The notes beneath the pieces are model-generated. The model made no database searches and was not told the origin of the DNA. It was given only the letters and a program-made list of their open reading frames with translations. The position numbers were made by a program, and so were the translations under genes. 64,000 nt of DNA from Elusimicrobia bacterium GWC2_61_19 (lineage in GTDB: Bacteria; Elusimicrobiota; Elusimicrobia; Elusimicrobiales; UBA9959), in the NCBI GenBank assembly GCA_001799795.1, contig MGUD01000025.1:75414-139413 (forward strand), in the 5' to 3' direction. This document shows, in pieces, positions 1-55,734 of the stretch. The stretch's first letter is position 1. Each line of letters starts with the position of its first letter.

Positions 1-172
1 TTACGAGGTTTCCTTTCTGGGCTCGGGCCCCGGGATAACCGAAAAATTCAAAGGGGCGGAGGTCAACTATAACGACACCGCCACAATGGTGATCAAGAAA
101 GACGGTTCGGTCACGTTCTCCGGCTGGAAGAACAATGAGGTGCCGCTGGCGGAGAGCAGGGACAGCCGGTAA
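1..172 (+). CDS. 3' end of a CDS truncated by the window edge (…YEVSFLGSGPG…AESRDSR*), function unknown
   Basis: Open frame from position 2 to TAA at 170-172 with GC-rich codon usage. Confidence 0.6.
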   Translation, partial: YEVSFLGSGPGITEKFKGAEVNYNDTATMVIKKDGSVTFSGWKNNEVPLAESRDSR

Positions 173-197: not shown

Positions 198-226
198 TTG
201 ACAAGTCAACATTTGTCTGGTATAAC
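198..226 (+). promoter_or_regulatory. Sigma70 promoter of the Gly-rich membrane protein cluster
   Basis: TTGACA (198-203), 17-bp spacer, TGG-TATAAC (221-226, extended -10). Confidence 0.8.
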
Positions 227-325
227 ATACCGCAGTAATTAACTTTGCCTTGAACGCCCGCCGGGCTGTGTCAAGGAAAGTTCAGATTCGTTTATACAGG
301 CCGGCGGCGGGACAAGGGCGGCGTT

Positions 326-1264
326 ATGATAAAAATACAGGGCAGAAAATCCAAAAACACTCAGTACGCGGTCGGCGGGACCGTGGCGGTGATCATACTC
401 GGGCTGTGGATAGCCATGCCTCTGATGAACAACTCCTCCCTGGACTCCTCCGTTTCGGCCGGCAATCCCTTCAGATCAAGGGTGGCGGATATCTCCTCGC
501 TCGGCAGCGACATACCCTCAGAGGGCGGCGCGCCCGGCTCCCCCCTTAGCGGGGAGATGATAAACAACCCCGCTACCTCCGGCGAAGACATGGCTTCCTC
601 GCTCTTTCAGTCCGGCCTGGAAGGCGAAGAGGCCGCCCCGGCGGAAGTTACCGCCGACGCCTCGGCCTCCGCGCCCCCGCCCTCCGCTTCGGGTTTCCCA
701 AGCGCGCCGGCGCCCTCCGGCGGCGGGTCCAAGCTTAATGCCGTGGCCTCCATCACCGGCGGCAACTCCAATTCAATGACGGCCGGCGGGACGCATAATA
801 AATTTTTCGGTTCGGGGGGGCAGAAAGCGGAATTTGCCCCGGCGGCCGGAGCGGACCTGAAGAAAATGGCCGCCGCTGATAAGAAACCAGGCCTGCTGGC
901 CATGCTGGGCAATACCGCGGATAAAAGCCAGCTGGCGGTAAAGACCGGCAATATGGACGTGGCCAAAGGCGGCGCCGCCGCGGCTTTCACCAATACGGCC
1001 AAGACCGGCCCCTCCGATCTCAACGATAAGATGGAGAACCAGTCGGCGATGTCCGGCCTACAGTTGGGGCAGACCGCCCAGGACCTGAAAAAGAGCGACC
1101 CCAACATCAGCAAGCATAAGGTCGCCATGCCCGAACCCAAGCCGGTGAAGGACGAGAAGGCCGATGAAGAGATGAAGAAGATGCTTTTACAGATGATCAT
1201 ACAGAACGTGCTGGGCCCGATGTTCAATACCATGGCTACCGGCATGTTCCCTCCTGCGGAGTAA
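326..1264 (+). CDS. Hypothetical Gly/Ser/Ala-rich membrane-anchored protein (cluster gene 1)
   Basis: Basic N-terminus, one TM (VGGTVAVIILGLWIAMPLM), low-complexity body, C-terminal amphipathic helix; motifs shared with genes 2-6. Confidence 0.85.
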   Translation: MIKIQGRKSKNTQYAVGGTVAVIILGLWIAMPLMNNSSLDSSVSAGNPFRSRVADISSLGSDIPSEGGAPGSPLSGEMINNPATSGEDMASSLFQSGLEGEEAAPAEVTADASASAPPPSASGFPSAPAPSGGGSKLNAVASITGGNSNSMTAGGTHNKFFGSGGQKAEFAPAAGADLKKMAAADKKPGLLAMLGNTADKSQLAVKTGNMDVAKGGAAAAFTNTAKTGPSDLNDKMENQSAMSGLQLGQTAQDLKKSDPNISKHKVAMPEPKPVKDEKADEEMKKMLLQMIIQNVLGPMFNTMATGMFPPAE

Positions 1265-1295
1265 CGGTAAAGTTGCGGGAATGCGGAGAATCATT

Positions 1296-2786
1296 ATGAA
1301 CACTCATAACGGCGGCAAAGAAGAAGAAAAGAAAGGCGGGTTCGGTTCCGCGCTCTCGGCCCTTTTCAGGGGCGGCACCTCCGCGGCGGGCGGGGCCTCC
1401 GGCGCCGGGTCTACCGGCGGGCTGGCCGGGCTTTTCGCCGGTAAGGCCGGGCTGGCCGGCATGCTGCTGGGCGGCGCCACTATAGCGGCCGGGGTGGGCG
1501 TGGTTTACAATTTCATGAGCCCCTCCGATAAGCCTGTTTATAGCCAGGAACTCTTCCAGAACAGCTACTACGAGGAAGAATCGGCCAAGGCCGGCCTGGA
1601 GCGGACGCAGGCGCGCAACGCCGGTGTGGCTTCCAGCATAGACGTTTTCAGGGAACAGGCCAAGAAGGACGGGCTAGGCGGTCTGGCGGCGGAAGCCGTA
1701 GACGGCGAGGCGCCCGACGCGGCGGCTGAAGCCGGCGCGGGAACGCCCGGCGCGGACTCCGCGGCCGAGGCGCCCGGCGCGGCCGGCAGCGAGGCCGGGG
1801 CCAGCGGCGCGCCCAGGATGGTGGCTTCATCTGGCTTTGCAGGTAAGGGCGGCGGCGGCAGCGGCTCCTCCATGCCCCGCATGCAGGGCGGCGGCGGCAT
1901 GTCCGGAGGTATAGGCGGCCAGTTCACTTCGGTTTACCGGCCCCCGGCGCAGGCCAACGGCGGCAAAACGTCCGGTATGACGGCCGCGGCCGCCCGTATA
2001 AAAAATTCACCTAAATCGGTTGTCCCCAGTTTCAATAAGAAAGGCGCTTTCGGCCAGGCTAAATACGCCGGCAGGATGGGCGCCAAGGCGGCTTATTCCG
2101 CGGACGGCTCAGGCGCGCGCAGCACGGCGGCCGAGGCCTTCTCCGGGGAAACCAGCGGTTCCGGGGATGTGGCCGGGGCCGGCGGCGCGGGGCTGGGCGG
2201 GGCCGGGGTTTCCAACGGCGCCAACCTTAAAGGCAACGACCCCAATATGAATTCCAATCAGTCCACTCCGCCCAAAGTTCCGGCGCCGGAGAACGTTTCT
2301 CCCTGGAAGAAGACCCTGGATATGATCATGTACGCCATGCTTATCTCCGCGGCTCTTACTATGGTGGCCAATTGGATGGCAGGTACCGTCTGGGGCGTGG
2401 CTTACGCGCAGTATGTGGCCATGGCCGCCATGTTGGCGGCCGCGGTGGTTCTTTACGGGGCCTTTAAAATGCTGAGCACGTACGGCCAGAAATGGACGGG
2501 CGCCATGTACGGTATCCTGGGTGCGGTACTCATGATCATGGCGAACAGGGCGCGGGTAGGCGCGGCTGAAAAAGCCGATGTGGCGGCTAAAGAGGCCACG
2601 GTAAATTCGCAAGAGGCAGGTATCGTAGAATCCGAACTTGCCCCGCAGGGAGAAGTCGCCGCTCAGGGAGAAGCCGTCGCTCAGGGAGAAGCCGCCGCTC
2701 AGGGAGAGGTAACGGTTACGGAGATCCCTCCTGAGGGTACGACTTACGCCGGCGACCCTGCCGGAATACCCCCTAACCAGACCTGA
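1296..2786 (+). CDS. Hypothetical Gly-rich membrane protein (cluster gene 2)
   Basis: GGAG RBS before ATG 1296; N-terminal TM, Gly-rich linker, PENVSPWK then about 3 hydrophobic helices; close paralog of gene 3. Confidence 0.85.
   Translation: MNTHNGGKEEEKKGGFGSALSALFRGGTSAAGGASGAGSTGGLAGLFAGKAGLAGMLLGGATIAAGVGVVYNFMSPSDKPVYSQELFQNSYYEEESAKAGLERTQARNAGVASSIDVFREQAKKDGLGGLAAEAVDGEAPDAAAEAGAGTPGADSAAEAPGAAGSEAGASGAPRMVASSGFAGKGGGGSGSSMPRMQGGGGMSGGIGGQFTSVYRPPAQANGGKTSGMTAAAARIKNSPKSVVPSFNKKGAFGQAKYAGRMGAKAAYSADGSGARSTAAEAFSGETSGSGDVAGAGGAGLGGAGVSNGANLKGNDPNMNSNQSTPPKVPAPENVSPWKKTLDMIMYAMLISAALTMVANWMAGTVWGVAYAQYVAMAAMLAAAVVLYGAFKMLSTYGQKWTGAMYGILGAVLMIMANRARVGAAEKADVAAKEATVNSQEAGIVESELAPQGEVAAQGEAVAQGEAAAQGEVTVTEIPPEGTTYAGDPAGIPPNQT
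2646..2708 (+). repeat. 18-bp in-frame tandem repeat (CAGGGAGAAGYCGYCGCT x3.5; QGEVAA/QGEAVA/QGEAAA)
   Basis: Directly visible units at 2646, 2664, 2682, 2700. Confidence 0.9.
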
Positions 2787-2802
2787 TTTTTGAGGTGTTA
2801 TT

Positions 2803-4176
2803 ATGAACGACTCTAAAAAAGATAATGAGAAGAAGGGCGGTTTCGGGGCTATGCCCACTATCACCGGGACGCCGACCATCGTCGGCGGTTCGGCCCCGGG
2901 CATAAGTTCCGCCGCCGGCACTTTCTTCGCCGGCAAGGCGGGCTTAGTGGCCCTGGTGCTGGGCAGCGCCACCGTGGCGGCGGGAGTGGGCGTTCTTTAT
3001 AATTTCATCGGTCCCTCGTCAAAACCCGCCTATTCCCCGGAATTGTTCCAGAACAGTTACTATGAGGAAGAAGCTTCCAAGGCCGGTCAGGAGAGGGCCA
3101 GCAGCCGCGACACCGCGGCCGCAGAGCCCTCCACGCTGGATCTCTTCAGGGAGCAGGCAAAAAAAGACGGGCTTGGCGGGCTCGGCGGTGAAGCCGCGGA
3201 TGGCGCCGCCTCCGGCGCGTCGGCTGAAGCGCCGGCTGAAGCTCCTTCAGCCGACAGCGCGGCGCCTGCGGCACCTCCCGCGGATATGCCGGCCCCCGGC
3301 GCCTCCAAACTTCGGGCTGCCGCTGGTTTCGGAGCCAAGGGCGGTGGAGGCGGCAGCGGCTCCTCCATGCCCCGTATGCAGGGCGGCGGTCTTTCAGGCG
3401 GCATAGGCAGCCAGTTCGACGCTATTTATAAGGCACCGGCGCAGGCGAATGCCGGCAAAACTTCCGGGATGACGGCCTCGGCCGCCCGCGTGAAAAATTC
3501 TCCGAAATACGCCGTGCCAAGTTTTAACAAGAAAGGCGCTTTCGGTCAGGCCAAATACGCCGGCAAACTGGGCTCTAAGGCCATTGGTTCCGGCGCCGAG
3601 GCTTCGCACGCCTACGCTACCGAGGCGATGGGCGGCGGCAGCGCCGGTTCGGGCGAGGTCGCCACCGGCGGCAGCGGCGCCGGCATCGGCGGCGCCGGCG
3701 TTTCGGACGGGGCCAAGCTTAAGGGCAGCGACCCCAGTCTTAACAGCAATAATTCCACTCCGCCTAAAGTGCCGAAGCCGGAGAACGTATCACCCTGGAA
3801 AAAATACCTGGACATGGCGATGTACGGCATGCTGGCCGCCGCGGCCCTTATAATGGCCGCCAATTGGGCGGCTAAGTCATACCCCGTAATAGCGCAGATC
3901 CTAGCCAGCCTGGCCATGATAGCGGCGGCGGTGGTGATGTACGCGGCTTACAAGATCATGAGCGAGTTCGGGCAGAAATGGACCGGTATGATGTACATGG
4001 TCGTCGGCGGCGCGCTGCTGATCATGGCCAACAAGGCCCGTGTGGGCGCGGCGGAACCGGCTACGGAAAAAGCGGCTACGGCGGCCGGAACCAATTCCAG
4101 CTGGTTCGCTCAAATATTCCAGTCCCTGATGGGACAGGCCAGTGCCAAGGACAAGAAAGACAGCAAGGAAGACTAG
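2803..4176 (+). CDS. Hypothetical Gly-rich membrane protein (cluster gene 3)
   Basis: GAGG RBS; shares ELFQNSYYEEE, FREQAKKDG, FNKKGAFGQAKY and PENVSPWKK with gene 2. Confidence 0.85.
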   Translation: MNDSKKDNEKKGGFGAMPTITGTPTIVGGSAPGISSAAGTFFAGKAGLVALVLGSATVAAGVGVLYNFIGPSSKPAYSPELFQNSYYEEEASKAGQERASSRDTAAAEPSTLDLFREQAKKDGLGGLGGEAADGAASGASAEAPAEAPSADSAAPAAPPADMPAPGASKLRAAAGFGAKGGGGGSGSSMPRMQGGGLSGGIGSQFDAIYKAPAQANAGKTSGMTASAARVKNSPKYAVPSFNKKGAFGQAKYAGKLGSKAIGSGAEASHAYATEAMGGGSAGSGEVATGGSGAGIGGAGVSDGAKLKGSDPSLNSNNSTPPKVPKPENVSPWKKYLDMAMYGMLAAAALIMAANWAAKSYPVIAQILASLAMIAAAVVMYAAYKIMSEFGQKWTGMMYMVVGGALLIMANKARVGAAEPATEKAATAAGTNSSWFAQIFQSLMGQASAKDKKDSKED

Positions 4177-4197
4177 TATCTGCGGTTAGGAGGCGTT

Positions 4198-5637
4198 ATG
4201 AACGACAATCTGCCCGATATAAACTTTAAGGAAAAGAAAGAGAAGAAACGCGGCGCGCTGGGCTGGCTGCGCAGCAAGCTGGGCATTGGCTCGCGCGGCG
4301 CCATGGGAGAAGCGGGCATTAACCCCGCCGCCATGAACGTGGGTAAGGCACTGGGCGGGGCCAAGTTCGGTTCTTCTTCAGCCGGGCTTGCCGGGCTGCT
4401 CGCCGGTAAGGCCGGGATCATAGCCACGGTGGCCGTGATGGCGGTGGGTACCGGCGTCTACCTGGCGAACAAGGAAGCTCCCATGGTAAGCAGCAGCGCT
4501 TTCAGTTCCGGCAAGGTCGCCGACAACTATGTGCCCGCCATACTGAGAAGCCAGGCCGCTAACCAGGGGTCCTCGCTGGACATGTTCAAGGATACCAACA
4601 AGGGCGCCGGTTTAAAGATGGAAGCGGACCCGGCTAAAGCCGCCGGTAAACAGGCTGAGGGGACTCCTGCCCCGGAAGAAGCCGCCGCACAGAACGCGGA
4701 ACAGCCCGCCCCGGAACAGGGAAATATGGCCCAGGAAATGATGGGCAAGCTGCAGGGCGGCGGGATAGGGTCGCTGACCAGCTCCATGGGCGGCGGGTCC
4801 AATAAGTTCTCCGGCATGGGGGGCTTCGGCAATAAGTTCAACCAGGGGGCTACGGGGGCCAAATCCGGTTTCAGTTCCGGTATCGGGGCCGGTTTCCAGG
4901 GGATGCCCAAGTTCGACGCGCGCAAGGCTAAAATGACGGCGATGAAGGCTTCCGCGCGGCCCGTCTTCTCGTCGAGCAAGGCCGGCAAAAAATCCAAGTT
5001 CGGCACAGGTTCCTACGGTCAGGCCAAGGGGCTGCGCGCGACGCAGAAATCCTACTCCGGGACCAATATCGACTCCGCCCGTTCCACCCAGGATGCGGCG
5101 TGGACAGGTTCTACCGCGGAGGGGGATGCCGCGGGCGGCGGCGCCGGAGTAAGCGAAGGGGGCGCCGGCATAATGTCTTCGCCCTCTCTGGACAACGGCG
5201 GCGCCACCGGCGGCGCGGGCAATCCTAACGATCCGGCCGTAGCGCCTGTCTCCGGGCCGGAAGACGTAAGCCCCTGGAAAGGTAAGCCGGAGATGGCGCT
5301 TTCGCTGATAACGGTATCGCTCATTTTGTCGGCTATCGCCAGCTACCTGATCTCCATAGGTAAGGGCCCGTTATTCTTCCTGGCGGTTATAGGCTATATT
5401 CTTGCCGCCATCGCCCTGGTCATGGCGCTGCAGGCCATGAAGATCGGCATGGAGCTGATGAGCAGTCACGGGCAGAAAGCCATGGGGATGCTGTACATGG
5501 CCGGCGGGGGATGTGCCGTAGGCGCGGCCATACTGGCCTTCGCAGGCAGCGTGGCGAACAACGCCATGCAGCTGGCGTTCTCGCTCATGGCGGCGGCCGC
5601 GGTGCTGATCGGCAGTATGCTGGGCGGAGGAGAGTAA
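4198..5637 (+). CDS. Hypothetical Gly-rich membrane protein (cluster gene 4)
   Basis: GGAGG RBS; AGKAG+TM, SSLDMFK, YGQAK, PEDVSPWK, about 4 C-terminal hydrophobic helices. Confidence 0.85.
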   Translation: MNDNLPDINFKEKKEKKRGALGWLRSKLGIGSRGAMGEAGINPAAMNVGKALGGAKFGSSSAGLAGLLAGKAGIIATVAVMAVGTGVYLANKEAPMVSSSAFSSGKVADNYVPAILRSQAANQGSSLDMFKDTNKGAGLKMEADPAKAAGKQAEGTPAPEEAAAQNAEQPAPEQGNMAQEMMGKLQGGGIGSLTSSMGGGSNKFSGMGGFGNKFNQGATGAKSGFSSGIGAGFQGMPKFDARKAKMTAMKASARPVFSSSKAGKKSKFGTGSYGQAKGLRATQKSYSGTNIDSARSTQDAAWTGSTAEGDAAGGGAGVSEGGAGIMSSPSLDNGGATGGAGNPNDPAVAPVSGPEDVSPWKGKPEMALSLITVSLILSAIASYLISIGKGPLFFLAVIGYILAAIALVMALQAMKIGMELMSSHGQKAMGMLYMAGGGCAVGAAILAFAGSVANNAMQLAFSLMAAAAVLIGSMLGGGE

Positions 5638-5661
5638 CTCCTGGCGTTCGGTTTTGCCGTT

Positions 5662-5686
5662 GCCGCCGGGTTTTATCCCCGGCGGC
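5662..5686 (+). other. GC-rich stem-loop between cluster genes 4 and 5 (possible mRNA stability or attenuation element)
   Basis: GCCGCCGGG-loop-CCCGGCGGC with no strong U-tail. Confidence 0.5.
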
Positions 5687-5778
5687 TTCGGACGTAGTAA
5701 GGTGATTTTATTCGGGGCATAAATAGGTGGATATTTTAGCGGTCGCACCCACAGGCGTTGTCGCCGGGGGGAGGCTAT

Positions 5779-7299
5779 ATGGGCAGCAAGTTCGTAGAAA
5801 AACATAAACGGAAATCGGTCCTCGCCGCCCTGCTCTTTATCTTCCAGGGCAGGACCAAGTATATCGGCATAATGCTCATCGTCACCATCCTGTCGGTGCC
5901 TTTTGTGATCTCCGGGGAAACCCTTGGCAGCATAATAGAACTGCGCCCGGTGGCGGCTTTCCTGCGCTCCATAGGCATGGGCAGCGTGGTTTCCGCCATA
6001 AACCCCAAGTATTCCAACGACCTGCTCAAGGCGGCTTTGGATAAGGCCGTGGATGACAGCGAGAATAATTCTTTCTGGAATAAGTTCCTCAAGAGCATTA
6101 ACGCCACCATGCCGCCCGCCGGCTCGCCCTCTTCCATGACCCTGCTGCGCGGCGGCAAGGATATTTACGGTCTGCCGGAAATAAAGGAACCTAAAGGCGC
6201 CAAGCCGGGACCAGGCCAGATAAAAGGCGCGGTGAACGCCGAAGAGCGCGAGAGGGGGGAGACCGGAGATGAAGTCGATCTGGAGTCCCTGCTGGCCTCC
6301 GGGACGGGAGGTGAGGGCGGGGGGCTTTATGGCGATGTGATGGGCCAGAACCTGGCGGGCCGTTTCGAGGGAGGCGCCGCAGCCGACAATGCGCCGTACA
6401 TCAACCGCACGGCTTTCGGCGGCAGCGCGGTCGCGGCGCGTTCTTCCGGCATGTATAACAACGTCATGGGCCAGGCGGGCAGCAAGGTGCCTGTGCCGGG
6501 CGCGGCGCAGAAGGTCAATACCAACAGGAAGATGGGCCGGGTGTCCGGGTTCACCTGGAAGAACGTGGGTTACAAAACCAAGAGCAACAATCTCAATATG
6601 AAGATCGGGGATAAAAAACCGATGTTCCAGCTTGCCCAAACCTTTGCCATGACGTCTTCGGCCTATAAATCCAAAGAATCGGCTTATGAGTATCAGCACG
6701 CTTATACGGGGGCGACCTACGACGGCAATAACGTGAACGCTGACGTGATAGATACGGGCGACGCCGGGGTAGTGATGCCGGATGTGGGGTTTATGGGCGG
6801 CCTTATCGACGCTACCGTAGGGGTGCAGCAGGCCGCCATGGATTGCGCCAAAGCCCAGGGCGACCAGGGAGCCAAGATGTCTGATGCGGGTAAAAAATTG
6901 GCTGATATAGCGAAAACGCTGGGTAAAAAACCGAAATGCTGCAATCATGGCGCCGTAGATTCCTGGAACGACAAACAGCGCCGGCTCGTGGAGCAATGCG
7001 CTATTTTTAATGCCAACGAAGCCATACTGTCGAAGAAATGCCAGACTATCAGTAGTCCGATGAGTTGCAGCATTTACAGCAACGAGATGGTCAGCAAGTG
7101 TTCCAAATGGAAATGCTGGTTAGCCATCCTGTTTATGATATTCCTGTTCGTGTCCGGCGGCATAATAGGTGTTATGATCGCGGCCATGCTGGCGGGTGTG
7201 GTTTCCTTCGATTTTAAAAATCTCGGCGGCAAGGTCGACGCCATGATAAGCTGGGTGGCCAGCGGCGGGGATGACAGCCAGAAAGGCGAAGGCGAATAG
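5779..7299 (+). CDS. Hypothetical membrane protein with Cys-rich C-terminal domain (cluster gene 5)
   Basis: GGAGG RBS before ATG 5779; N-terminal hydrophobic segments, Gly-rich middle, 8 Cys, then a TM hairpin. Confidence 0.85.
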   Translation: MGSKFVEKHKRKSVLAALLFIFQGRTKYIGIMLIVTILSVPFVISGETLGSIIELRPVAAFLRSIGMGSVVSAINPKYSNDLLKAALDKAVDDSENNSFWNKFLKSINATMPPAGSPSSMTLLRGGKDIYGLPEIKEPKGAKPGPGQIKGAVNAEERERGETGDEVDLESLLASGTGGEGGGLYGDVMGQNLAGRFEGGAAADNAPYINRTAFGGSAVAARSSGMYNNVMGQAGSKVPVPGAAQKVNTNRKMGRVSGFTWKNVGYKTKSNNLNMKIGDKKPMFQLAQTFAMTSSAYKSKESAYEYQHAYTGATYDGNNVNADVIDTGDAGVVMPDVGFMGGLIDATVGVQQAAMDCAKAQGDQGAKMSDAGKKLADIAKTLGKKPKCCNHGAVDSWNDKQRRLVEQCAIFNANEAILSKKCQTISSPMSCSIYSNEMVSKCSKWKCWLAILFMIFLFVSGGIIGVMIAAMLAGVVSFDFKNLGGKVDAMISWVASGGDDSQKGEGE

Positions 7300-7321
7300 C
7301 GGGAGTTCCGCGGTTTTTCTT

Positions 7322-7459
7322 AAGCCCGCGGTTAAAGCCTGTCGGAGGAAAGTTCAGGTGCACTATTGCTTCATCGGGGCGGCGGCTATCCGGCGGTGTG
7401 CCTGTTGAGCTTTCCTCCTGGGGCGCCCAGTAAGGCGTTCCGGCTTTACCGGCGGGTTT
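7322..7459 (+). ncRNA. Putative structured RNA (~140-nt rod-like hairpin) between cluster genes 5 and 6
   Basis: Nested pairings 7322-29/7452-59, 7333-39/7442-48, 7344-55/7407-18 and 7356-63/7396-7403, with G-U pairs that work only on the + strand. Confidence 0.4.
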
Positions 7460-7522
7460 TCTTATGCGGTTTTACGACGTGGTAGTGGTTTAGGCCAAAG
7501 GGCCTAGCAAGTCAGGGGCCGA

Positions 7523-7563
7523 TTGACACTTGGCCCGCGCGCCGATATTAGGTAAATTATAAT
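7523..7563 (+). promoter_or_regulatory. Putative sigma70 promoter for cluster gene 6
   Basis: TTGACA at 7523-28, 17 bp to TATTAG; a second TATAAT at 7558-63. Confidence 0.5.
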
Positions 7564-7634
7564 TGAGCTACTGTATCAACGCGGTTTTGGTCTATTGGCG
7601 ACGGTTAATTTAAATTGAAGGTCCGGAGGCGGTT

Positions 7635-10600
7635 ATGAACTTCTACAATGAAGAAGAGAAAAAGGAAGGGGCGCCCGCGGTGCCAGGGATGTCCGGTTTT
7701 AAAAAGACGTCCGCTTTCGGAAAATCTCCGATGTTCTCCCGCACGGCCGGCGGCATACTGGACCGCATCAAGAACCTGTCGCGCAAGGACATGGCTTTCG
7801 TAGGCATAGGGCTGAGCGTGCTGGTGATGGCGCCCGTGGCCGAATATATGATGTCCAAGCCCTCCGCCGACAACCTGCTTACCCCCGGTTTCGGTTCCAG
7901 GGAAGGCTCCGCCGCCTCGGGGCTCTATGAGCCGGGCATAAACGCTCTCAGCCAGGGTTCTCCGGACGGCTCCGGCGAGGTGATCACCCCGCTCAGTTCC
8001 AGGGACCCGGCTTCGCTGATACTGGGCTCGCAGTCCGCCGCCCCGGCCTTCACGCCCCCGGCCGCCCCCGTAAATAATTTCCGGGACGCCATGAAGGACG
8101 CGGGCCGTTCCGCCTTCTCCGAGGCCACTAAATCGGCCGGCGCTCCCACCCCCGTTCCGCGGATGCAGTCGGCGCTGCGCAGCTTCGGCTCTTTCTTCAG
8201 CGGCGGCGAGGGCACGCGCACGGCCGGAACCCTGAGCGGCGGCAAGATCATCGACGACGCCAAGTCGGCTTCCGGTAAAGCGGCCAAGCGCTCCATGATG
8301 GGGCCTGTGGCTATGCCCGGCTACAAAGGCGTGGCTTCCAACACCCCCAACAGTTCTTCCAAGGGCGCTTACGAAAAGCTCCGCTCCGCGGCCGACAAGT
8401 CCGCCGGCAACTTCAGCGGCGGCTCGGCCATGAACTCCCTGGATAAAGCCGCGGCCGACGCGCTTGATATAGGTAAGGGCGCGGGCGGCCTGGGTTACGG
8501 CGGCGAATCCGACAAGACCACCAAGCCCTCGGGTTCCACCACCAAGTACGACCATAACCGCTCCGGCGAGACCCTGGACGAAATGGCGGCCAAGCAGCGC
8601 ATGCAGAAGGCGCTGGACTGGGAATTCTACAAGCAGTACGAGATCCCCAAGCAGATCATCAACTCCCTGGTCGGCGCCGTGGGCGGCGTGCTGGCCCAAG
8701 TGGTCAAGGACAACATGGAGCACATCTTCGGTCTGGACCGCGGAGCACCTGAAAGGTTCTGCTGGTCGCCCGCGAACAACCTGGCCTCCACCGATCCGGC
8801 GGATTGCCGGAAGTATGGGGCGATAGGCGAGTCTTTCCTTAAAGATAAGGGCGAGAAAGAAAGTACCACCACCGTTCCGCCCGGGCGCAGCTGCGCCTGC
8901 GGTTTCAACTCTGTGAAACCTACTATAGGCGATCCGGCCAGCGGTGCGGTTGAAGTAAAACCCGATCCCAAACCGGATCCTTCTTCCACCCAGATAGTGG
9001 CCGTGGGCTCCTTCGACACCGCGCTGGTAACCGTGCTTGCCCGCGTGCAGGAAGTGGTGAAGAAGGGCGATAATATCTCTGCCAAGGAACTGCTTGAGTT
9101 TAACAAGGGGCTCTCCGGCACACTGGCCGAGGAAATGCCCAAGCTTGTGGTGACCCTTAACACCTCCATGCAGGGGGTGAACAAACTGGCTGCAGGCGGC
9201 ATAACCAAACTCGGCAACGACAGTCTCAGGTCCCTGGGGCCCCTTATGGCCGCCGAGAACGAGACCAGCGCGTTCATTACCGAGCTCTCCGGGGTGATCG
9301 ACTCTAAATCCACCAAGGTGGCCAAGGCCCTGGGCGCGGAAATGAGCAAGAACGACGAGGTTAAAGCCGAATTCGACATGACGGACAACTCCGCTCTGGT
9401 CGCGGACCTTAAGAAGTATCTGGGTAAGGCGGAAAACATAAAGAACGTCCGCCTTCTCTCCGCCCGGAATCACCTGAACTTCAACGACAAGTCCCAGAAA
9501 CTGTACGCGCAGCAGGGGCAGGTGCTGGCCGCCAAGATAGGCGGGCTGCGGGACAGGGCTGCCGGCATCTCCGAAATTACGAAAAAGATAGCCTCGGACT
9601 CCAATGCTATAAAACCTGAGGACGCCGACAAGAATAAGGACGCCATCTGCAAACAGTTCGCCGATATTTCAGGCGTGGCTTTGCCGGCGTGTAAAGGCGT
9701 TGCGGCGCCTGAAAAAGGCAAGAGCGTTGTAGAAGCCGCCATGGCCCTGCGCGGCGCCCAGGGGGTGACTAACAACGCCCTTAATGATAAAGCGGCCGTT
9801 GATGCCGAGGTCGCCGCATGGGAGGCCGCCAGCCCCATGATAAAGCTCAATAACGACAGGATTGCCCAGCAGGCGGATTCGATGGGCGATCCGCAGGACA
9901 ATATCGCCGCCTGCCTGCTGCGCGCGGAGAACAAACTGCCGCCGGATGTCGCCGCCCTGGCCGGCAACCCCGAGACCTCTGTGGCCTCACCGTCCCGCGC
10001 GGCCAGTGCCGACATCCTGGAGTACCGCAAAGCGTTAAAGCTTGACGGGACCCCGGATAACCCTCCTAATACCCCGGTTAACCCCCCTACTACTCCGGTT
10101 ACGCCCGTACCTGTAGTGGACCCGGCGCTGGCCGGCAGAAAGACTTCTTTGCTGGCTGACGCGCGCCTGACCGGCAGCGAATACGACGCCGCCACCGCGG
10201 TGCATAAAAAGCTTGGCAACGGGACGAACGCCCAGTACGCTAGGGCCGACTATGGAAAAATGACCACCAGCAAGGCCGAAATAGACCGCCTTGCCGGTGA
10301 GCTGTCGGCGGCAGACGTCAAGCCCACCAAGGAGAAGCTGGATGAGTTGGAGAAGCACTTGGGTAATTTTGAGAAGTCCTACGCGGACTTCCAGCGGCAC
10401 GCGGCCGCGGCCGGTACCCCTGTGCCCAAGCCCAAGCCGACTACCAGCCAGGCCACGCAGGTGATAATCAACAATAACGTCTCGGCTGCCTCCAGCGCCG
10501 GGGTCACTACTAAGCCAACTGCCAACGTCACACATAACACCGTCAACAATACACACAATACCGTGAACAACACCACGGTGAAGCCTCCGGTGGTGATTGT

Positions 10601-10895
10601 GCAGCCGGAAAAGCCCAAACCCGCCGTCGCCCCCAAAGAGTTCTCGGTAAAGATGCGCAACGGCACGTTCATGAAGCTCAGGACCAACGATAATACCGGC
10701 GCCTCCGCTACGTATTACGGCGGTTACAGGGACGGCGTGAAGTGGCTGTATAAATACGAAGTGGTGTGCGTGCGCTCCGGTAAAACGTTCGTAATCGACA
10801 CGAACCGGGTGCAGCGGACCAAAGCCCTGTTCTCGACCGGCATCACCGTAGGCGGTCCCGAGGCCGTCTCCGGCTTCAGCGGCGTGTGCAAGTAA
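7635..10895 (+). CDS. Large hypothetical membrane-anchored protein, 1086 aa (cluster gene 6)
   Basis: GGAGG RBS; N-terminal TM, Gly/Ser-rich region similar to gene 1, then a helical region, Pro/Thr/Asn linkers and a C-terminal beta-rich Cys-containing domain. Confidence 0.85.
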   Translation: MNFYNEEEKKEGAPAVPGMSGFKKTSAFGKSPMFSRTAGGILDRIKNLSRKDMAFVGIGLSVLVMAPVAEYMMSKPSADNLLTPGFGSREGSAASGLYEPGINALSQGSPDGSGEVITPLSSRDPASLILGSQSAAPAFTPPAAPVNNFRDAMKDAGRSAFSEATKSAGAPTPVPRMQSALRSFGSFFSGGEGTRTAGTLSGGKIIDDAKSASGKAAKRSMMGPVAMPGYKGVASNTPNSSSKGAYEKLRSAADKSAGNFSGGSAMNSLDKAAADALDIGKGAGGLGYGGESDKTTKPSGSTTKYDHNRSGETLDEMAAKQRMQKALDWEFYKQYEIPKQIINSLVGAVGGVLAQVVKDNMEHIFGLDRGAPERFCWSPANNLASTDPADCRKYGAIGESFLKDKGEKESTTTVPPGRSCACGFNSVKPTIGDPASGAVEVKPDPKPDPSSTQIVAVGSFDTALVTVLARVQEVVKKGDNISAKELLEFNKGLSGTLAEEMPKLVVTLNTSMQGVNKLAAGGITKLGNDSLRSLGPLMAAENETSAFITELSGVIDSKSTKVAKALGAEMSKNDEVKAEFDMTDNSALVADLKKYLGKAENIKNVRLLSARNHLNFNDKSQKLYAQQGQVLAAKIGGLRDRAAGISEITKKIASDSNAIKPEDADKNKDAICKQFADISGVALPACKGVAAPEKGKSVVEAAMALRGAQGVTNNALNDKAAVDAEVAAWEAASPMIKLNNDRIAQQADSMGDPQDNIAACLLRAENKLPPDVAALAGNPETSVASPSRAASADILEYRKALKLDGTPDNPPNTPVNPPTTPVTPVPVVDPALAGRKTSLLADARLTGSEYDAATAVHKKLGNGTNAQYARADYGKMTTSKAEIDRLAGELSAADVKPTKEKLDELEKHLGNFEKSYADFQRHAAAAGTPVPKPKPTTSQATQVIINNNVSAASSAGVTTKPTANVTHNTVNNTHNTVNNTTVKPPVVIVQPEKPKPAVAPKEFSVKMRNGTFMKLRTNDNTGASATYYGGYRDGVKWLYKYEVVCVRSGKTFVIDTNRVQRTKALFSTGITVGGPEAVSGFSGVCK

Positions 10896-10912
10896 CGGCA
10901 GAATAGCCCCAG

Positions 10913-10946
10913 AAAACCCCGCGGTCTTCAAAGCCGCGGGGTTTTT
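10913..10946 (+). terminator. Rho-independent terminator closing the cluster
   Basis: AAAACCCCGCGG…CCGCGGGGTTTTT. Confidence 0.85.
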
Positions 10947-11063
10947 ATTTGCCTCTTAAAATAGCGGCACAATGCGGTTGCGTTCCCCTTTATCGGGACA
11001 AGTTAAAATCGTATAATAGGTGTACGGGTTTGATTCGTTTACGGGTGGGGGCAGGAGTTGAAT

Positions 11064-12104
11064 ATGGCCAGGATGAAGAAGGCGGATTACCTCGGGGAAG
11101 TCGTAAAGCACATAGAGATCTCCAAGCACAACGTGGTGCCCCTGGTGGACGCCATGAACGATATGGCTTTTTCGGCCCGGGACCTCGCCCGCGCCGCCAG
11201 GATCTATAACCTGATGCTGGCCGACAAGAACTGCTCTGTCATCCTTACGCTGGCCGGGTCCCTTTTCTCCGCGGGGCTTAAAAAAGTGGTGGTGGACCTG
11301 GTCCGCCACAACATGGTGGACGCCATAGTCTCCACCGGGGCCGTCATCGTCGACCAGGACTTCTTCGAAGCGCTCGGCTTCAAGCATTATAAGGGCGCGA
11401 GCTGCGGTGTGGACGACAACGAACTGCGCCGCCTGCACATAGACCGCATCTACGACACTTTTATAGACGAGGACGAACTGCGCGTCTGCGACGACACCAC
11501 CCGCAGGATCGCCGACGCCCTGGAGCCGCGCCCCTACTCCTCCCGCGAATTCATAGAAGAGATGGGCAAGTACCTCTCCAAACACGCCCGGAACAAGGAT
11601 TCCGTGGTACTGGCCGCCTACGAGGCGCGCGTGCCCATCTTCGTGCCGGCCTTCTCCGACTGCTCGGCCGGTTTCGGCATGGTGGCGCACCAGTGGAACA
11701 ACCCCGCCAGGCACATGTCCCTGGACTCCGCCAGGGACTTTCTGGAGCTGACCAAGGTTAAGATAGAGGCCCGGGATACCGGCCTTCTTATGATAGGCGG
11801 CGGCGTGCCCAAGAACTTTACGCAGGACACCGTGGTGGCGGCCGATATCATGGGCAAGGCGGCCCCCATGCACAAGTACGCCGTGCAGGTGACCGTGGCC
11901 GACGTGCGCGACGGGGCGCTGTCCTCCTCCACGCTGAAAGAAGCCAGCTCCTGGGGCAAGGTGGAGACCACCCACGAGCAGATGGTCTTCTCCGAAGCTA
12001 CCCTGGCCGTGCCGCTTATCGCGGGTTATGCCTATCACAAGGGCGGCTGGAAGGGCCGCAAGCCGCGCAAATATTCGGACTTCCTCAACAAGGGGACCCG
12101 CTGA
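11064..12104 (+). CDS. Deoxyhypusine synthase-like protein (bacterial homospermidine synthase type)
   Basis: IVSTGA, IDRIYD, GGGVPKNF, DGALSSSTLKEASSWGK motifs; GGAG RBS. Confidence 0.9.
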   Translation: MARMKKADYLGEVVKHIEISKHNVVPLVDAMNDMAFSARDLARAARIYNLMLADKNCSVILTLAGSLFSAGLKKVVVDLVRHNMVDAIVSTGAVIVDQDFFEALGFKHYKGASCGVDDNELRRLHIDRIYDTFIDEDELRVCDDTTRRIADALEPRPYSSREFIEEMGKYLSKHARNKDSVVLAAYEARVPIFVPAFSDCSAGFGMVAHQWNNPARHMSLDSARDFLELTKVKIEARDTGLLMIGGGVPKNFTQDTVVAADIMGKAAPMHKYAVQVTVADVRDGALSSSTLKEASSWGKVETTHEQMVFSEATLAVPLIAGYAYHKGGWKGRKPRKYSDFLNKGTR

Positions 12105-12144: not shown

Positions 12145-13002
12145 ATGATGAAAAAACTGATCGTTTGTTTGACCATGCTGGCGGCGCTTTCTATGAACGC
12201 TTCCGCCTATTTCGACGGCGGCGTGACCGGCACCACCGGCCCCGACGGCTACCGCGGCACCAGGCTGAACCTGGTCATCGGTTCCGGCAACCTGGCCATA
12301 GAGCCTTCGCTGGCCTCCTATACCTCCGACGCGCTGGACAAGACCTACCGCACCTACGGCGTGCGCGGCGCCTGGGAAGCCGATAAATACACCGTGGGCG
12401 GCGAAGTGGGCACCACCCCCGAAGTGAACGGCTATTCCAATAAATATGTCGGCGCGGACATCACCTTCTCCCTGACCCCCGGGGCTGGCGGAAAATCCCG
12501 CCTGGCCGGCCCCGGTTCCCGCGGCACCACCCGCGGCGGCGAAGGCGTCACCCGCATAGACGTGGGCGCCTCCGTCAAAGAGATCATGCACAAGAACACC
12601 GCCGGCGCTACCGACCTCAAGACCAACCAGACCCAGGCCACCCTGTTCGCCGGCGCGAAGATCCTGATGGCCAACCTCTCGGCTTCCTACACCGGTTACG
12701 CCTACGGCACGCAGGACACCGCCACGCTCATCAATCCCATCCCGGGCCTCAACTTCGCCTACGGGGCCACGCCCAAGTCCAGCGTTAACGCCCGCCTGGA
12801 CCTGCCCGGCTACCCCCTGGTGACGCCCTTCGTCTCTTACACCGGCACCAAGTACAAGGGCGGCGTGAAAGACAGCTCCGCTTACCTGTTCGGCGCCTAC
12901 ATAGACCTGAGCATGGTAACGGCCAGTATCGGCTACCAGATATTCGACAACGGCACCAACAACGACAGCTTCCTGTCCGTGGGCGCCGGCATTAAGTTCT
13001 AA
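12145..13002 (+). CDS. Putative outer-membrane beta-barrel protein
   Basis: Sec signal peptide (MKKLIVCLTMLAALSMNASA), alternating aromatic beta-strands, terminal Phe (GAGIKF). Confidence 0.7.
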   Translation: MMKKLIVCLTMLAALSMNASAYFDGGVTGTTGPDGYRGTRLNLVIGSGNLAIEPSLASYTSDALDKTYRTYGVRGAWEADKYTVGGEVGTTPEVNGYSNKYVGADITFSLTPGAGGKSRLAGPGSRGTTRGGEGVTRIDVGASVKEIMHKNTAGATDLKTNQTQATLFAGAKILMANLSASYTGYAYGTQDTATLINPIPGLNFAYGATPKSSVNARLDLPGYPLVTPFVSYTGTKYKGGVKDSSAYLFGAYIDLSMVTASIGYQIFDNGTNNDSFLSVGAGIKF

Positions 13003-23622: not shown

Positions 23623-25920
23623 ATGAAATACTGGTTCTACTCGGAAGGCAACATACTCGGTCCCTATGAGCCGGCAGAAATGCTGGCCCTGCCCGCTTTT
23701 GCCGAGGAAAGCCTGGTTTGCCCCGAGACCGCCACCGGCGACAACCCCGGCGACTGGCGCCCCGCCACCCAGGTGGCCGAGATCGCTTCCGCCATGAGCG
23801 TGGGCGCGGGCCGCGTAGTTACCGCCGGCGTCATGGGCGGCGCCTACGAATACGAAACCGGCTTCAACGCTTCCGTCCGTTATTACGAAGACAAAGAACC
23901 CTCGGCCGGCGCCTCTTACGGGGACCTGCTCGACACCATAGACAACGTTCTCGGCGCCTACAAGGAGGGGAAAGAGAACCCCGTAGCCCCGGGTGAAACC
24001 GATTACGACCTGGCGGAGAAATTCGACATCCGCCTTTCGCGCATACAGGAAGAACTGGAAGCCGCCCGCTGGGAAAAGAACCTCCTCCTCGAAAAGATCC
24101 GCACCAAGGAGCTGGAGGAGAAGAAGAACCGCGAGCGCATAAACGACCTGGAGGCCCGCCTTAAAGGCGAGACCGGCCGCGCCGACCTCACCGCCCGCGA
24201 AGTGGAGCAGGTGCGCCACCTGTCCGACCTGAAGGAAAAAGCCGAGACCATCCGCAAGATAGAAGAGATCAAACGGGAAGAATTGTCCCTTATGGAGGAC
24301 GCGTCCCCTTCATCCGCCGCCGCTCCCGCCGCGCAAACTCCCGCCGCCGCCAAAGCGGAGCAGCCGGTCCCGGAGCTGGAAAGTAAAGCTTTAAAAAGTA
24401 TAGGCGCTTCGAGCGAAATAAAACTCGAAACTTCCCTGGGTGCGGAAGAGAAGGGCCCCTCCGACGACGCCGGCCTGACCAGCCGCAAATTCAGGAGCCT
24501 TGGCCAGACCCAGGCGCCCGCCTACGTTTATGGTTCCCATTATGACAAACCGCTGCCCGGGCCGGAGGCGGCCCCTCCCGGCGCTTTCAAAAGTTCTGAA
24601 GTCCCCTCGCCCTCGCCTGAGCCCGAGGCCGAGCCGCTGCCGCAGCAGGCCGGCGGCGTCGTTTATGATTTTACCGTAGTAACCGCCAAGTCCGACACCG
24701 CCCAGCAGTTTAAAATAGAGCCCCGCCACGAGGAGGTGCCTCCGGCGCAGTCCGTCAGGCAGGCCCCGGCCGCCCAGCCGCAGGCGGTAAAGCCGCCTAC
24801 CTACGATTTCGGCGTGCCCGCCCAGCAGCCCCAGGCTGCCCAGCCTCAGAGCATGGCCCAGCGCGGGTTCCAGTTCCAGCCCCAGGCGCAGCCGGTGTAC
24901 TATAACCCGGCGGCCTCGGCTCCCGCGCCCGCGGCAAGCCCGGCGCCAGCCGTTCAGCCGGCGGAAACGTCGCCGAAGGCGCAGCTCTCGGCTTCTGAGA
25001 AGAAAGCTCCCGCGGCCCCCGCAGATTCGCCCGATAAGACGCAGCGTATCCCGGTGCCGGTGGTAAAGGGGAAACCGGAAGCCAAGCCCCAGGATAAGCC
25101 GAGGAAGAAAGGCGGCAAGCTCGCCTTTATAGCCATACTTGTGATCTTCGGTTCCATAGCCGCCGGCGGCCTGGGCTACTTCTTTATGGGCGAGGGCGTC
25201 AGCTTTTCTGAATTCTCCATGCTTAACCTGGGCGGGAAGAAAAAAAGCACGGCCATGACCAGCCAGCTTGAGACGAAAGAGCCGGAGGCCAAGGCCGAAC
25301 CCGCCGAAGGGCCGCAGCCTGCGGCCGCCGAACAGCAGACGCCCTCCGCACAGCCGGCGCTCCAGGCCGTCCAGCCGCAGCCGGCCCAGGAGCCGGAAAA
25401 GCCGGTCAACGAAAATATCCGCAAAGCCCTCGAGATAGTAAAGGATTACAAGCTTTCCGGCGGCCGCGGCACGATAGCCACCTGGTTCGCCAACTCTTTC
25501 CTTTCCGGTTCCGCCGGCGGTTCCAACGAAGAGTGGACGGCCACGCCGTTGCACGGGGATATCCTGGTGGTGCAGTACCGCCTGCTCAGGCCCAAACAGG
25601 ACCCGCTGATCTACCAGTTCGAAGTCGACGCCGCCAAACAGGATATCGTGCGCGGCATAAACAACAGCGCCATAGAACTCCTGGACCTCTCCGCCGGGGA
25701 AAAGAGCGCGGCCGCGGTCACCGCCAAAAAACCGGCAGCCAAGCACAAGGTCAGGAAGCCCTCGCGCCCTAAAGAGGTGCCCATACTGCCCCTGCCCGAC
25801 GCCCCCGAGGCCGTCGCCAGCGGGGAACCGGAACCCACGGGTTTCGAGAACGCGCAGGCCGAGGGGTCGGAACAGGTAAAATATCTGAAAGCCCAGGAGT
25901 CGGACGAAGAGCTTTTCTAA
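23623..25920 (+). CDS. GYF_2 (DUF4339)-like domain, coiled-coil, Pro-rich linker, single-TM protein
   Basis: YWFYSEGNILGPY…LVC…WRPA N-terminus; KKGGK followed by a TM; C-terminal exported domain. Confidence 0.75.
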   Translation: MKYWFYSEGNILGPYEPAEMLALPAFAEESLVCPETATGDNPGDWRPATQVAEIASAMSVGAGRVVTAGVMGGAYEYETGFNASVRYYEDKEPSAGASYGDLLDTIDNVLGAYKEGKENPVAPGETDYDLAEKFDIRLSRIQEELEAARWEKNLLLEKIRTKELEEKKNRERINDLEARLKGETGRADLTAREVEQVRHLSDLKEKAETIRKIEEIKREELSLMEDASPSSAAAPAAQTPAAAKAEQPVPELESKALKSIGASSEIKLETSLGAEEKGPSDDAGLTSRKFRSLGQTQAPAYVYGSHYDKPLPGPEAAPPGAFKSSEVPSPSPEPEAEPLPQQAGGVVYDFTVVTAKSDTAQQFKIEPRHEEVPPAQSVRQAPAAQPQAVKPPTYDFGVPAQQPQAAQPQSMAQRGFQFQPQAQPVYYNPAASAPAPAASPAPAVQPAETSPKAQLSASEKKAPAAPADSPDKTQRIPVPVVKGKPEAKPQDKPRKKGGKLAFIAILVIFGSIAAGGLGYFFMGEGVSFSEFSMLNLGGKKKSTAMTSQLETKEPEAKAEPAEGPQPAAAEQQTPSAQPALQAVQPQPAQEPEKPVNENIRKALEIVKDYKLSGGRGTIATWFANSFLSGSAGGSNEEWTATPLHGDILVVQYRLLRPKQDPLIYQFEVDAAKQDIVRGINNSAIELLDLSAGEKSAAAVTAKKPAAKHKVRKPSRPKEVPILPLPDAPEAVASGEPEPTGFENAQAEGSEQVKYLKAQESDEELF

Positions 25921-26051
25921 GGAGCGGGTGAATAGCCGCGCGCCGGCGGCGGCTTGTCGGCATGACGGGAACTATTTAGTAAGATATATAAACATCGCAC
26001 AGGGCGGATAGTCGCCCCGGTACGCTGAGCGCCGGTCACTTTCCCAATTAT

Positions 26052-27821
26052 ATGGCTGAAAAAGGTTTGTCCATAAATATTTCCAAGCGCCTCGGCGAAA
26101 TGCTGGTCACTTCCGGCCTGATAACCGCCGCCCAGCTCAATGAAGTGCTGGAGATGCAGCGCACCACCGGCAGCAAGCTGGGCCACCTCCTCGTCCACAA
26201 GAAATACATAGAAGAGCGCAGCCTGCTGGAATTTCTCAGCAAGCAGTTCGGCATAGAGTTCGTGGACCTGCGCGGTTTCGAGGCGCCCGCGGAAGTCCTG
26301 AAGATCATCCCGGAGAACATCGCCCGCCGCTACGGCCTGATCGCCGTGCAGAAGACGGAGAACAAGCTGAAGGTGGCGATGGAGGACCCGCTCAACATCG
26401 TGGTCCTTGACGATCTGAAGATGATGACCGGTTACGACATAAAGCCGGTCTTCGGCTCGGAATCCGACATCTCCGCCGCGATAGACAAGAATTACGGCTC
26501 AAAAACCTCCAAGGAAGCGCTCGACGACATCCTCAGGAGGACCACCGGCGGCACCACCGAGGTGTCCCTGGTCACCGAAGACGGATCGAATGGCGGGGGC
26601 GACGACCTTATCTCGCTGGAAGAGAAGGGGGAGGCCGCCCCCATAGTGCAGATGGTGAACCTCATCATCTCTTCCGCCATAAAGGCGCACGCTTCCGATA
26701 TCCATATCGAGCCCACCTATAAGGATACCAAGGTCCGTTTCCGCATAGACGGCGTGCTGCACGCGCAGCCCTCGCCGCCTAAAAAATTCCATAACGCGAT
26801 AATCAGCCGCCTCAAGATCATGGCCACGCTGGATATTTCCGAGCGGCGCCTGCCGCAGGACGGCCGCACCAAGCTCAAGATCGAGGACCACGAGATAGAC
26901 CTGCGTATTTCCATCCTGCCCTGCGGCCCGGGGGAAAAGGTGGTCATGCGTATCCTGGATTCCTCCGGCCTGAAACTCAGGCTGGAAGACCTGGGGATGG
27001 AGCCGGAGAACCTGGCGATCTTCTCTAAGTGCCTGAAGGCCCCGCACGGCATCAACCTCATCACCGGGCCCACGGGGTCCGGTAAGTCCACCACCCTTTA
27101 CTCGGCTCTGGCCACGCTCAACGCGCCCGACGTGAATATCGTCACCATCGAGGACCCCATCGAATACAACCTGGAGGGCATCAACCAGGTGATGGTGAAC
27201 GCCGACGTGGGACTTACCTTCGCCTCCGGTCTGCGTTCTTTCCTGCGCCAGGACCCGGATATCATAATGGTGGGCGAAATAAGGGACTTCGAGACGATGT
27301 CCACCGCCATAAACGCCGCCATGACCGGCCACCTGGTCTTCTCCACCCTGCACACCAACGACGCCCCCGGCGCCATAACCCGCATCGGCATGATGGGCGT
27401 GGAGCCCTTCCTGACCTCCTCCACCCTGCTGATGGTGGTGGCGCAGCGTCTTGTGCGCGGCATCTGCAAGAATTGCAAGGAAACCTACGAGGTGAAGCCG
27501 GAACTGCTGGTAAGCCTGGGCGTCTCCAAAGCCGTCCTTGATAACCATATTAAAAATGGTAAAATAACGCTGTCGAGGGGCAGGGGCTGCGACCTCTGCG
27601 CCAAGACCGGTTATAAGGGGCGCATGGGTATCCACGAGATACTTGAGATCAACGATGTCATCAGGGGCCTTATCATAGAGAAGGCGCACGTTTCCAAGAT
27701 AAAAGAGGCCGGCTGCAAGAACGGCATGATAACCCTGAGAGAGTCGGCTTTGCGCAAGCTTTTTATCGGCGCGACCACGGTGGAAGAAGTCATACGCGTG
27801 ACCGGGTCGGGTGTGGATTAA
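26052..27821 (+). CDS. pilB: Type IV pilus assembly ATPase PilB with MshEN domain
   Basis: RLGEMLVTSGLI…LEMQ, ASDIHIEP, GPTGSGKST, LRQDPD, tetra-Cys Zn motif. Confidence 0.95.
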   Translation: MAEKGLSINISKRLGEMLVTSGLITAAQLNEVLEMQRTTGSKLGHLLVHKKYIEERSLLEFLSKQFGIEFVDLRGFEAPAEVLKIIPENIARRYGLIAVQKTENKLKVAMEDPLNIVVLDDLKMMTGYDIKPVFGSESDISAAIDKNYGSKTSKEALDDILRRTTGGTTEVSLVTEDGSNGGGDDLISLEEKGEAAPIVQMVNLIISSAIKAHASDIHIEPTYKDTKVRFRIDGVLHAQPSPPKKFHNAIISRLKIMATLDISERRLPQDGRTKLKIEDHEIDLRISILPCGPGEKVVMRILDSSGLKLRLEDLGMEPENLAIFSKCLKAPHGINLITGPTGSGKSTTLYSALATLNAPDVNIVTIEDPIEYNLEGINQVMVNADVGLTFASGLRSFLRQDPDIIMVGEIRDFETMSTAINAAMTGHLVFSTLHTNDAPGAITRIGMMGVEPFLTSSTLLMVVAQRLVRGICKNCKETYEVKPELLVSLGVSKAVLDNHIKNGKITLSRGRGCDLCAKTGYKGRMGIHEILEINDVIRGLIIEKAHVSKIKEAGCKNGMITLRESALRKLFIGATTVEEVIRVTGSGVD

Positions 27822-27884
27822 GGGCGCCGCGGGCCGGAAACCCGGCGCGGCACGGATCTTCAGCGGGCAAACAGGAGCTATTTC

Positions 27885-28961
<1,077 letters not shown>

Positions 28962-28964
28962 AAA

Positions 28965-51551: not shown

Positions 51552-51555
51552 ATTT

Positions 51556-52104
51556 ATGCTAAATGCTATCGGCGGGGTTGAACTCTCGAGCGTGGCCAAA
51601 GGCCTGGAAGCGGCCGACGCCATGCTTAAAACTTCGGATATAAAACTTCTGTTGTCGCGCTCCATCTGCGCCGGCAAGTATCTCATTCTGCTGGCCGGGG
51701 ACGTGGGCAGCGTGAACGCGGCGGTGGAGGCCGGCGCGGCCAAAGCCGCGCACTCGCTGGTGGACAGTTTCGTCATCCCCAATATCCATCCTGAAGTTTT
51801 TCCTGCTATAGAAGGCACCACCGTAGTGGAAGGCCTTGAATCCCTGGGCATCATAGAGGCCTTCTCCGCCTCCGCCCTGGTAGAGGCCGCGGACGCGGCG
51901 GTAAAAGCCGCGCCCGTGAAACTCCTGGAGATCCGCCTGGCCATGGCCCTGGGCGGCAAAGCTTTCGTGACGCTGACCGGGTCGGTCGCCGCGGTAGAAA
52001 CCGCCGTGGCCGCCGGCGCCGCCGTGGCCGGCAAAAAAGGCCTGCTGGTGGAGAAGGTCGTGATCCCGCAGCCCAGGCCGGAACTGCTGCGCGAACTGAT
52101 TTAG
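51556..52104 (+). CDS. pduT: BMC-T shell protein, PduT-like (Fe-S Cys present)
   Basis: Tandem BMC domains; RSICAGKY matches the PduT TICPGK motif. Confidence 0.88.
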   Translation: MLNAIGGVELSSVAKGLEAADAMLKTSDIKLLLSRSICAGKYLILLAGDVGSVNAAVEAGAAKAAHSLVDSFVIPNIHPEVFPAIEGTTVVEGLESLGIIEAFSASALVEAADAAVKAAPVKLLEIRLAMALGGKAFVTLTGSVAAVETAVAAGAAVAGKKGLLVEKVVIPQPRPELLRELI

Positions 52105-52160
52105 GGCTGCCGCCGCTTTATATTGTTTGTATAATCTTTTATTAATTAAGGAGACTCGAA

Positions 52161-52940: not shown

Positions 52941-52944
52941 ACCA

Positions 52945-53577: not shown

Positions 53578-53634
53578 GGCGCGGCTGGAGAAAATTCAGG
53601 CAGAACAAATTCGGTAGTTTTACAGGAGGATACT

Positions 53635-53919: not shown

Positions 53920-53926
53920 TCGGGAT

Positions 53927-53986: not shown

Positions 53987-54002
53987 GCGCAGAGGAGGAA
54001 TC

Positions 54003-55733: not shown

Positions 55734-55734
55734 T

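Follow-up and report, generated by a model that had tools for sequence, protein, structure and literature searches.

Tad pili serve in adhesion, sensing and prey killing. TolA and TonB are periplasm-spanning proteins, and the type III secretion translocators SctE and SctB are partly disordered proteins with hydrophobic helical hairpins that are encoded by tandem genes. Variable minor-pilin tips on Tad pili have been documented (PMC12075869, accessible part of the paper), among them those of KilLMN in the Myxococcus Kil system. Here we describe a module of seven genes, g0 to g6, of Elusimicrobia bacterium GWC2_61_19; its genes g1 to g6 lie complete in the window, by which we mean the whole stretch of 64,000 nt that was analysed (GCA_001799795.1, contig MGUD01000025.1, positions 75,414-139,413, forward strand). 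As with KilLMN, a Tad core and TadE/TadG-like minor pilins are encoded in the same genomes, in most relatives directly upstream of the module, and the proteins resemble the KilLMN Tips in their variable, Cys-bearing distal domains. They differ in that all seven lack a prepilin motif, and no pilin fold was predicted in the one model made to compare, that of g5; a counterpart of the seven proteins is not described in the accessible part of the Kil paper (PMC12075869).

A preliminary description of this DNA had proposed six co-directional genes, most with strong ribosome-binding sites, bounded by a promoter and a terminator. This holds: the six reading frames are real and span 326-10895 (Table 1), ribosome-binding sites are good before five of the six genes (that of g1 is weak), and both promoter and terminator are present on direct reading of the sequence. 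A consensus scanner misses both: it accepts no -10 box that does not finish in T and no hairpin whose loop exceeds 8 nt. The seventh member, g0, starts 1066 bases upstream of the window, stops at window position 172 and has the same layout as g1-g6. A single six-gene transcript is doubtful because g6 is preceded by a 335-bp gap that holds a terminator-like hairpin and a second promoter-like site. Right behind the terminator lies a deoxyhypusine synthase family gene (11058-12104, +). Farther along the window we noted a gene for a 765-aa protein with a presumably GYF_2-like start, ahead of genes that we take to be pilB/pilT/pilC-like (23623-30158, +), and a microcompartment-like gene run (50205-57600, +) whose products are presumably shell proteins, an aldehyde dehydrogenase and a PduL-like protein.

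Table 1. Features of the module and its putative transcription signals, in window positions.
Feature	Position	Strand	Description	Basis or remark
g0, 3' end	1..172	+	Seventh member, 412 aa; N-terminal TM, Gly/Ser-rich middle, variable C-end with Cys	Ortholog heads the cluster in 18/20 loci
Predicted sigma70-like promoter	198..226	+	TTGACA-17 nt-TATAAC, TG extension	Direct reading
g1	326..1264	+	312 aa; one N-terminal TM, conserved low-complexity middle, amphipathic C-terminal helix	
g2	1296..2786	+	496 aa; N-terminal TM, Gly-rich middle, hydrophobic hairpin at C-terminus	
g3	2803..4176	+	457 aa; recent g2 duplicate (61% identical); single copy in relatives	
g4	4198..5637	+	479 aa; g2/g3 paralogue, 3-4 hydrophobic helices C-terminally	
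g5	5779..7299	+	506 aa; N-terminal TM, conserved middle, Cys-stapled helical hairpin (340-460), C-terminal TM	
Terminator-like hairpin behind g5	7299..7311	+		Hairpin scan; such sites not enriched vs shuffles
Putative second promoter-like site	7523..7563	+	TTGACA at 7523, TATAAT at 7558; spacing imperfect	Direct reading
g6	7635..10895	+	1086 aa; TM and highly conserved N-terminal 345 aa, variable helical stalk, Asn/Thr/Pro linker, swappable C-terminal tip	
Beta-type g6 tip	10617..10895	+	Short form without the amphipathic hairpin of many relatives	
Intrinsic terminator-like hairpin	10913..10946	+	12-bp stem, 9-nt loop, U-run	Direct reading

All seven proteins have a net-basic N-terminal tail and one N-terminal hydrophobic helix, as judged from charge and hydropathy, and none carries a lipobox. 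To this extent the common layout proposed earlier stands; the Gly/Ser/Ala richness that was part of it is uneven, with a G+S+A fraction of 0.43-0.45 in g2-g4 and 0.31 in g5 and g6. At their C-terminal ends g2-g4 have two to four hydrophobic helices, and g5 has a Cys-rich segment and one helix. The products had also been described as six paralogues. This is firm for g2/g3 and for g4, which is homologous to g2/g3 over about 400 columns (hhalign 99.95%), and g1 is probably a distant paralogue of g2/g3, with a match of 94% over 65 columns. Against the other members g0, g5 and g6 reach only 1-8%, and their real scores with the other members' single-family profiles do not exceed those of 60 local shuffles; "six paralogues" was therefore an overstatement. 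For the same reason, the fusion of g0, g1, g2/3 and g4 into one group by iterated HMMs does not establish a common origin; for descent of all seven from one ancestor there is no more than the visual impression of a shared two-helix motif.

No recognised family had been seen in the module, and our searches agree: none of the six window proteins has a Pfam, NCBIfam or PHROG family at cut-off. The best Pfam match (E 0.0089) was far below cut-off, the NCBIfam scan returned none, and the sole PHROG match was a weak coiled-region one, on g6. In the ESM Atlas g3 matched only hypothetical Elusimicrobiota clusters and g5 had no usable named match, structure comparison there gave a TM by query of at most 0.25, and a PDB sequence search with three profiles found nothing below E 0.8. 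The model of g5 (pLDDT 58.6) is helical and confident solely at the Cys-stapled hairpin, and a fold search with it found nothing more specific than helical-hairpin matches (Z up to 8.1). The long g6 tip of a relative models as an elongated all-beta domain (pLDDT 76.6), for which the fold search gave no significant row (TM at most 0.19; best VIA Z 5.5); its weak Foldseek rows are to ring- and pore-forming beta proteins, FlgH at E 0.009 (TM 0.19) and lysenin at E 0.33. A four-chain prediction of g1+g3+g5+g4 scored 0.00 with controls that did not fold either, and so speaks neither for nor against a complex. Three very small sets of RNA contigs gave no match to the module. We found no description of the cluster in openly accessible papers and preprint main texts, and the terms "pili" and "secretion" do not occur in the main text of 10.1101/765248.

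A known family, or the lack of a conserved order in relatives, had been named as findings that would speak against the module. We found no characterised family, and among the 20 loci fetched as best g3 matches the order g0-g1-g2/3-g4-g5-g6 is kept in 18, the exceptions being one locus cut by a contig end and one lone g4 copy. Every named homologue is labelled Elusimicrobia. While g3 alone matches 22 of 24 congeners, a broad g6 profile matches 118 of the 121 genomes of the order, nearly all with a single copy, and 61 of 121 genomes of the class. Within the class, eight families have g6 in every one of 60 genomes, and 58 of these genomes also have a TadG-like gene; neither g6 nor a TadG-like gene was found in 52 genomes of six other families. 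The g2/g4 core profile finds 830 clusters (50% identity) at E ≤0.001 among 1.84 billion representatives, counted irrespective of taxon. Genomes as small as 1.2-1.7 Mb retain the module; its apparent absence from family f2 was rejected as a sensitivity artefact, broader profiles finding members there. Taken together, the module is conserved, is without described relatives and consists of proteins of no known family. As separate observations, two congeners have a gene that we take to be Radical-SAM-like between g4 and g5 (L023:12672-14030, L027:11306-12670), and 6 of the 20 loci (L036:1657-3309 and five others) encode, some 3 kb ahead of g0, a further TM-anchored Gly/Ser-rich protein, which is missing from that place in the window's genome.

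Comparison of the window proteins with those of 17-19 congeners showed that the N-terminal part, Gly-rich middle included, has 54-75% identity, against 14-38% for the C-terminal part; identity of the two parts is 0.75 and 0.14 in g6, 0.65 and 0.22 in g2, and 0.63 and 0.35 in g4. Two elements of the preliminary description are thereby not upheld. Conservation is not limited to short islands in the linker, the low-complexity middles being conserved throughout, and these middles, taken earlier for flexible linkers, are the best-conserved parts of the proteins, which lends no support to a role as passive tethers. The hypervariable C-ends are the least conserved. For the last 150 residues of g6 in 18 congeners, BLAST gives nine groups; three of these can be aligned as a single beta-type family, and the g6 beta tip is present in 32 of 80 genomes of the window's family, partly on separate secreted proteins. 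We also observed the g6 beta tip at the end of stand-alone proteins that are 270-600 aa long and begin with a signal-peptide-like sequence (L144, L146, L149-L151, L158, L159).

The earlier proposal of a joint envelope or contact apparatus gains support from linkage to a Tad pilus locus in relatives. Outside the window's family, the module sits behind the TadG-like/TadE-like minor-pilin genes that close the Tad locus, and this is seen in five families. Right ahead of it, often with an FtsH-like gene between, tadG-like and tadE-like genes were found in f2 (L076, L077, L082, L083, L092), f6 (L044, L087, L088), f8 (L051, L074, L120) and f9 (L084). In 39 of 58 genomes of f2 the TadG-like gene is followed by g6 on its own strand, at a distance of 6.5-10.8 kb; in 2 of the others the two are on the same contig but far apart, and in 17 they are on different contigs. 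Diverged members stand directly behind the TadG-like/TadE-like pair in f2, where a g1 homologue follows the tadE-like gene. Coordinates read by eye in f8 show that the TadG-like gene and g6 share contig and strand, within 10-25 kb, in 9 of 22 genomes, and none of the 22 has both on one contig but apart. Six Gly-rich membrane genes, two of them matching the g2/g4 profile, stand behind the TadG-like gene in f9, and genome G116 has TadE, RcpC, secretin, CpaF-type ATPase and TadB/C-type genes just upstream of the module. In f6 and f8, TadG-like, TadE-like and FtsH-like genes stand ahead of the module, and behind it come genes for a secreted protein of 900-1200 aa and for giant proteins. The TadE-like label is backed by Pfam (best E 6.5e-5), and the TadG-like label comes mostly from a motif and from the place of the gene, one of six reaching Pfam Tad at E 0.089. 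The class III prepilin cleavage motif, present in two of three TadE-like controls, is absent from all seven module proteins, and no match to Pfam TadE, Tad or Class_IIIsignal was found in the six window proteins.

Several features of these loci deserve mention in their own right. The giant proteins behind the module in f6 and f8 (L066-L070, L121) have 2300 to >3900 aa and are nearly without Pfam matches. A second FtsH-like protease gene is fixed behind the tadE-like gene in several families (L074:11480-13183, L044:4705-6360), its best match in the window's genome being about 37% identical. Some Tad secretins are very short, with 240-250 aa and a secretin domain only (L112:1638-2357, L063:5141-5887).

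The link is broken in the window's own family. The window's genome has Flp, TadE, RcpC, secretin, CpaF and TadB/C on contigs C10 and C27, and in this genome and its family the module is unlinked to the Tad locus (C25 versus C10/C27), lying instead between a gene that we take to be fprA-like and a beta-barrel-like gene with dnaX. The beta-barrel-like gene (window 12145-13002, +) encodes an outer-membrane protein without a Pfam match and is found downstream of the module in 14 of the 20 loci. In 5 of 11 loci of the window's family (2 being uninformative) a g0-like gene still stands behind the tadE-like gene, as if the rest of the module had been relocated from the Tad locus and the g0-like gene left behind. 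The single-contig genome G092 has g1+g2/4, g5 and g6 in three places, none at the Tad locus, and in G144 (96% complete), which keeps RcpC and a TadG-like gene, three profiles found no module member. In family f13, 52 of 63 genomes carry RcpC and 0 of 89 carry g6, so that Tad systems exist without the module; many Elusimicrobiota carry RcpC without it, and the Tad loci of 11 genomes from other families had no such Gly-rich cluster within the fetched stretches of up to 20-40 kb. Because the module-positive families are kin, the co-distribution of module and TadG-like gene does not amount to many independent events.

The explanation that we favour, and to which we give an even chance, is that the proteins are an inner-membrane-anchored accessory of a lineage-specific Tad pilus, serving contact with cells or surfaces. 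The genes, their order, conservation, linkage and co-distribution are observed; a complex, coupling to the pilus and a role in contact are inferred, as is the topology, which was assigned from charge and hydropathy only. The N-terminal helix would hold each protein with the N-tail inside, and the conserved Gly/Ser/basic middle would lie in the periplasm and become ordered only when it binds partners or the pilus machinery. A membrane would take up the hydrophobic ends of g2-g5; this may be a second membrane, as proposed earlier, or just as well the inner membrane of the cell itself. The fast-evolving ends, the swappable tip of g6 above all, would face the target and set specificity.

Among the alternatives, we consider it unlikely that the module forms a Tad-independent envelope complex, TolA/TonB-like or a scaffold for cell shape or division, that has no more than an ancient gene neighbourhood and its regulation in common with the Tad locus. 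Near-universal single-copy retention in the order, genomes of 1.2-1.7 Mb included, would suit such a complex, as would the persistence of the module in the window's family and G092, where it no longer adjoins the Tad locus, and the conserved beta-barrel-like gene downstream of it in that family. The bitopic layout, with a single N-terminal anchor and a long low-complexity middle, likewise recalls TolA and TonB. However, no TolA-III or TonB C-terminal domain was found by Pfam or NCBIfam, the module proteins are least conserved at their C-ends and better conserved in the middle, they have extra C-terminal hydrophobic helices, and six distinct members stand in fixed order. Hypervariable, swappable C-ends would be unusual for a housekeeping scaffold, and both the direct adjacency to minor-pilin genes in five families and the failure to find the module in G144 or most of the phylum argue against one. 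That the genes are tandem duplicates for independent surface or membrane proteins with no joint complex appears very improbable: lineage-specific duplications and insertions do occur, and separate promoter-like sites lie ahead of g0, g1 and g6, but the members are distinct and non-interchangeable and keep a fixed order across families of very different G+C.

The proteins might also be cargo rather than scaffold: the Tad machine, or a route along it, would export them as unfolded substrates that build a pore or translocon in the target membrane, their anchors perhaps being released by a linked FtsH-like or S41 protease and the giant neighbours perhaps acting through the pore. This reading, which adds an export route to the translocon design of the preliminary description and which we rank behind the Tad-independent complex and hold to be rather improbable, draws on the conserved disordered middles with hydrophobic C-terminal hairpins, on up to five g2/g4 paralogues in f6, and on the FtsH-like gene between tadE-like and g1 in f6-f8. 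Partial disorder, hydrophobic helical hairpins and tandem encoding are shared with SctE and SctB, from which the module proteins differ in their N-terminal membrane anchors; Pfam, NCBIfam and the PDB sequence search gave no match to the SctE/SctB families, and no injectisome genes were found at annotated loci. Uncleaved anchors, moreover, favour retention. Proteins of 2300-3900+ aa are encoded downstream in f6 and f8, with a weak ResIII-type helicase match in three of eight fragments scanned, as in giant proteins that have been tied to predation elsewhere (10.1101/2023.11.21.568195, accessible part). The order of module and giant proteins, some with the helicase-like match, recalls the Omnitrophota giant proteins beside T2SS-like genes described there; no giant genes stand beside the module in the window's family or in the small-genome family f2, which keeps the module, and homologues of the giant proteins and of the FtsH-like paralogue were not found in the window's genome (66% complete). 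Many g6 tips have an amphipathic beta-hairpin, and the long form that was modelled is elongated and all-beta, which recalls aerolysin-type pore formers or the FlgH ring, as do the weak FlgH and lysenin rows. Yet no sequence or fold match was significant, and the window's tip lacks the hairpin. Less probable again is a full contact-delivery machine, in which a Tad pilus would be coupled to six or seven intrinsically unfolded membrane proteins that build a translocon in the neighbour cell; the tips would be polymorphic and some of them pore-like, and the giant proteins would be the cargo. If it were true, much of the class would be cell-contact predators or symbionts.

On present sequence evidence the module is best filed as putative contact machinery of the Tad type, its subunits belonging to no known family; if it is Tad-independent, it would still be a core envelope complex without a described relative. 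A module that is near-universal in the order, has variable tips and stands where the Tad locus ends offers concrete candidates for delivery to a touched cell and suggests a cell-contact lifestyle for this poorly known lineage.
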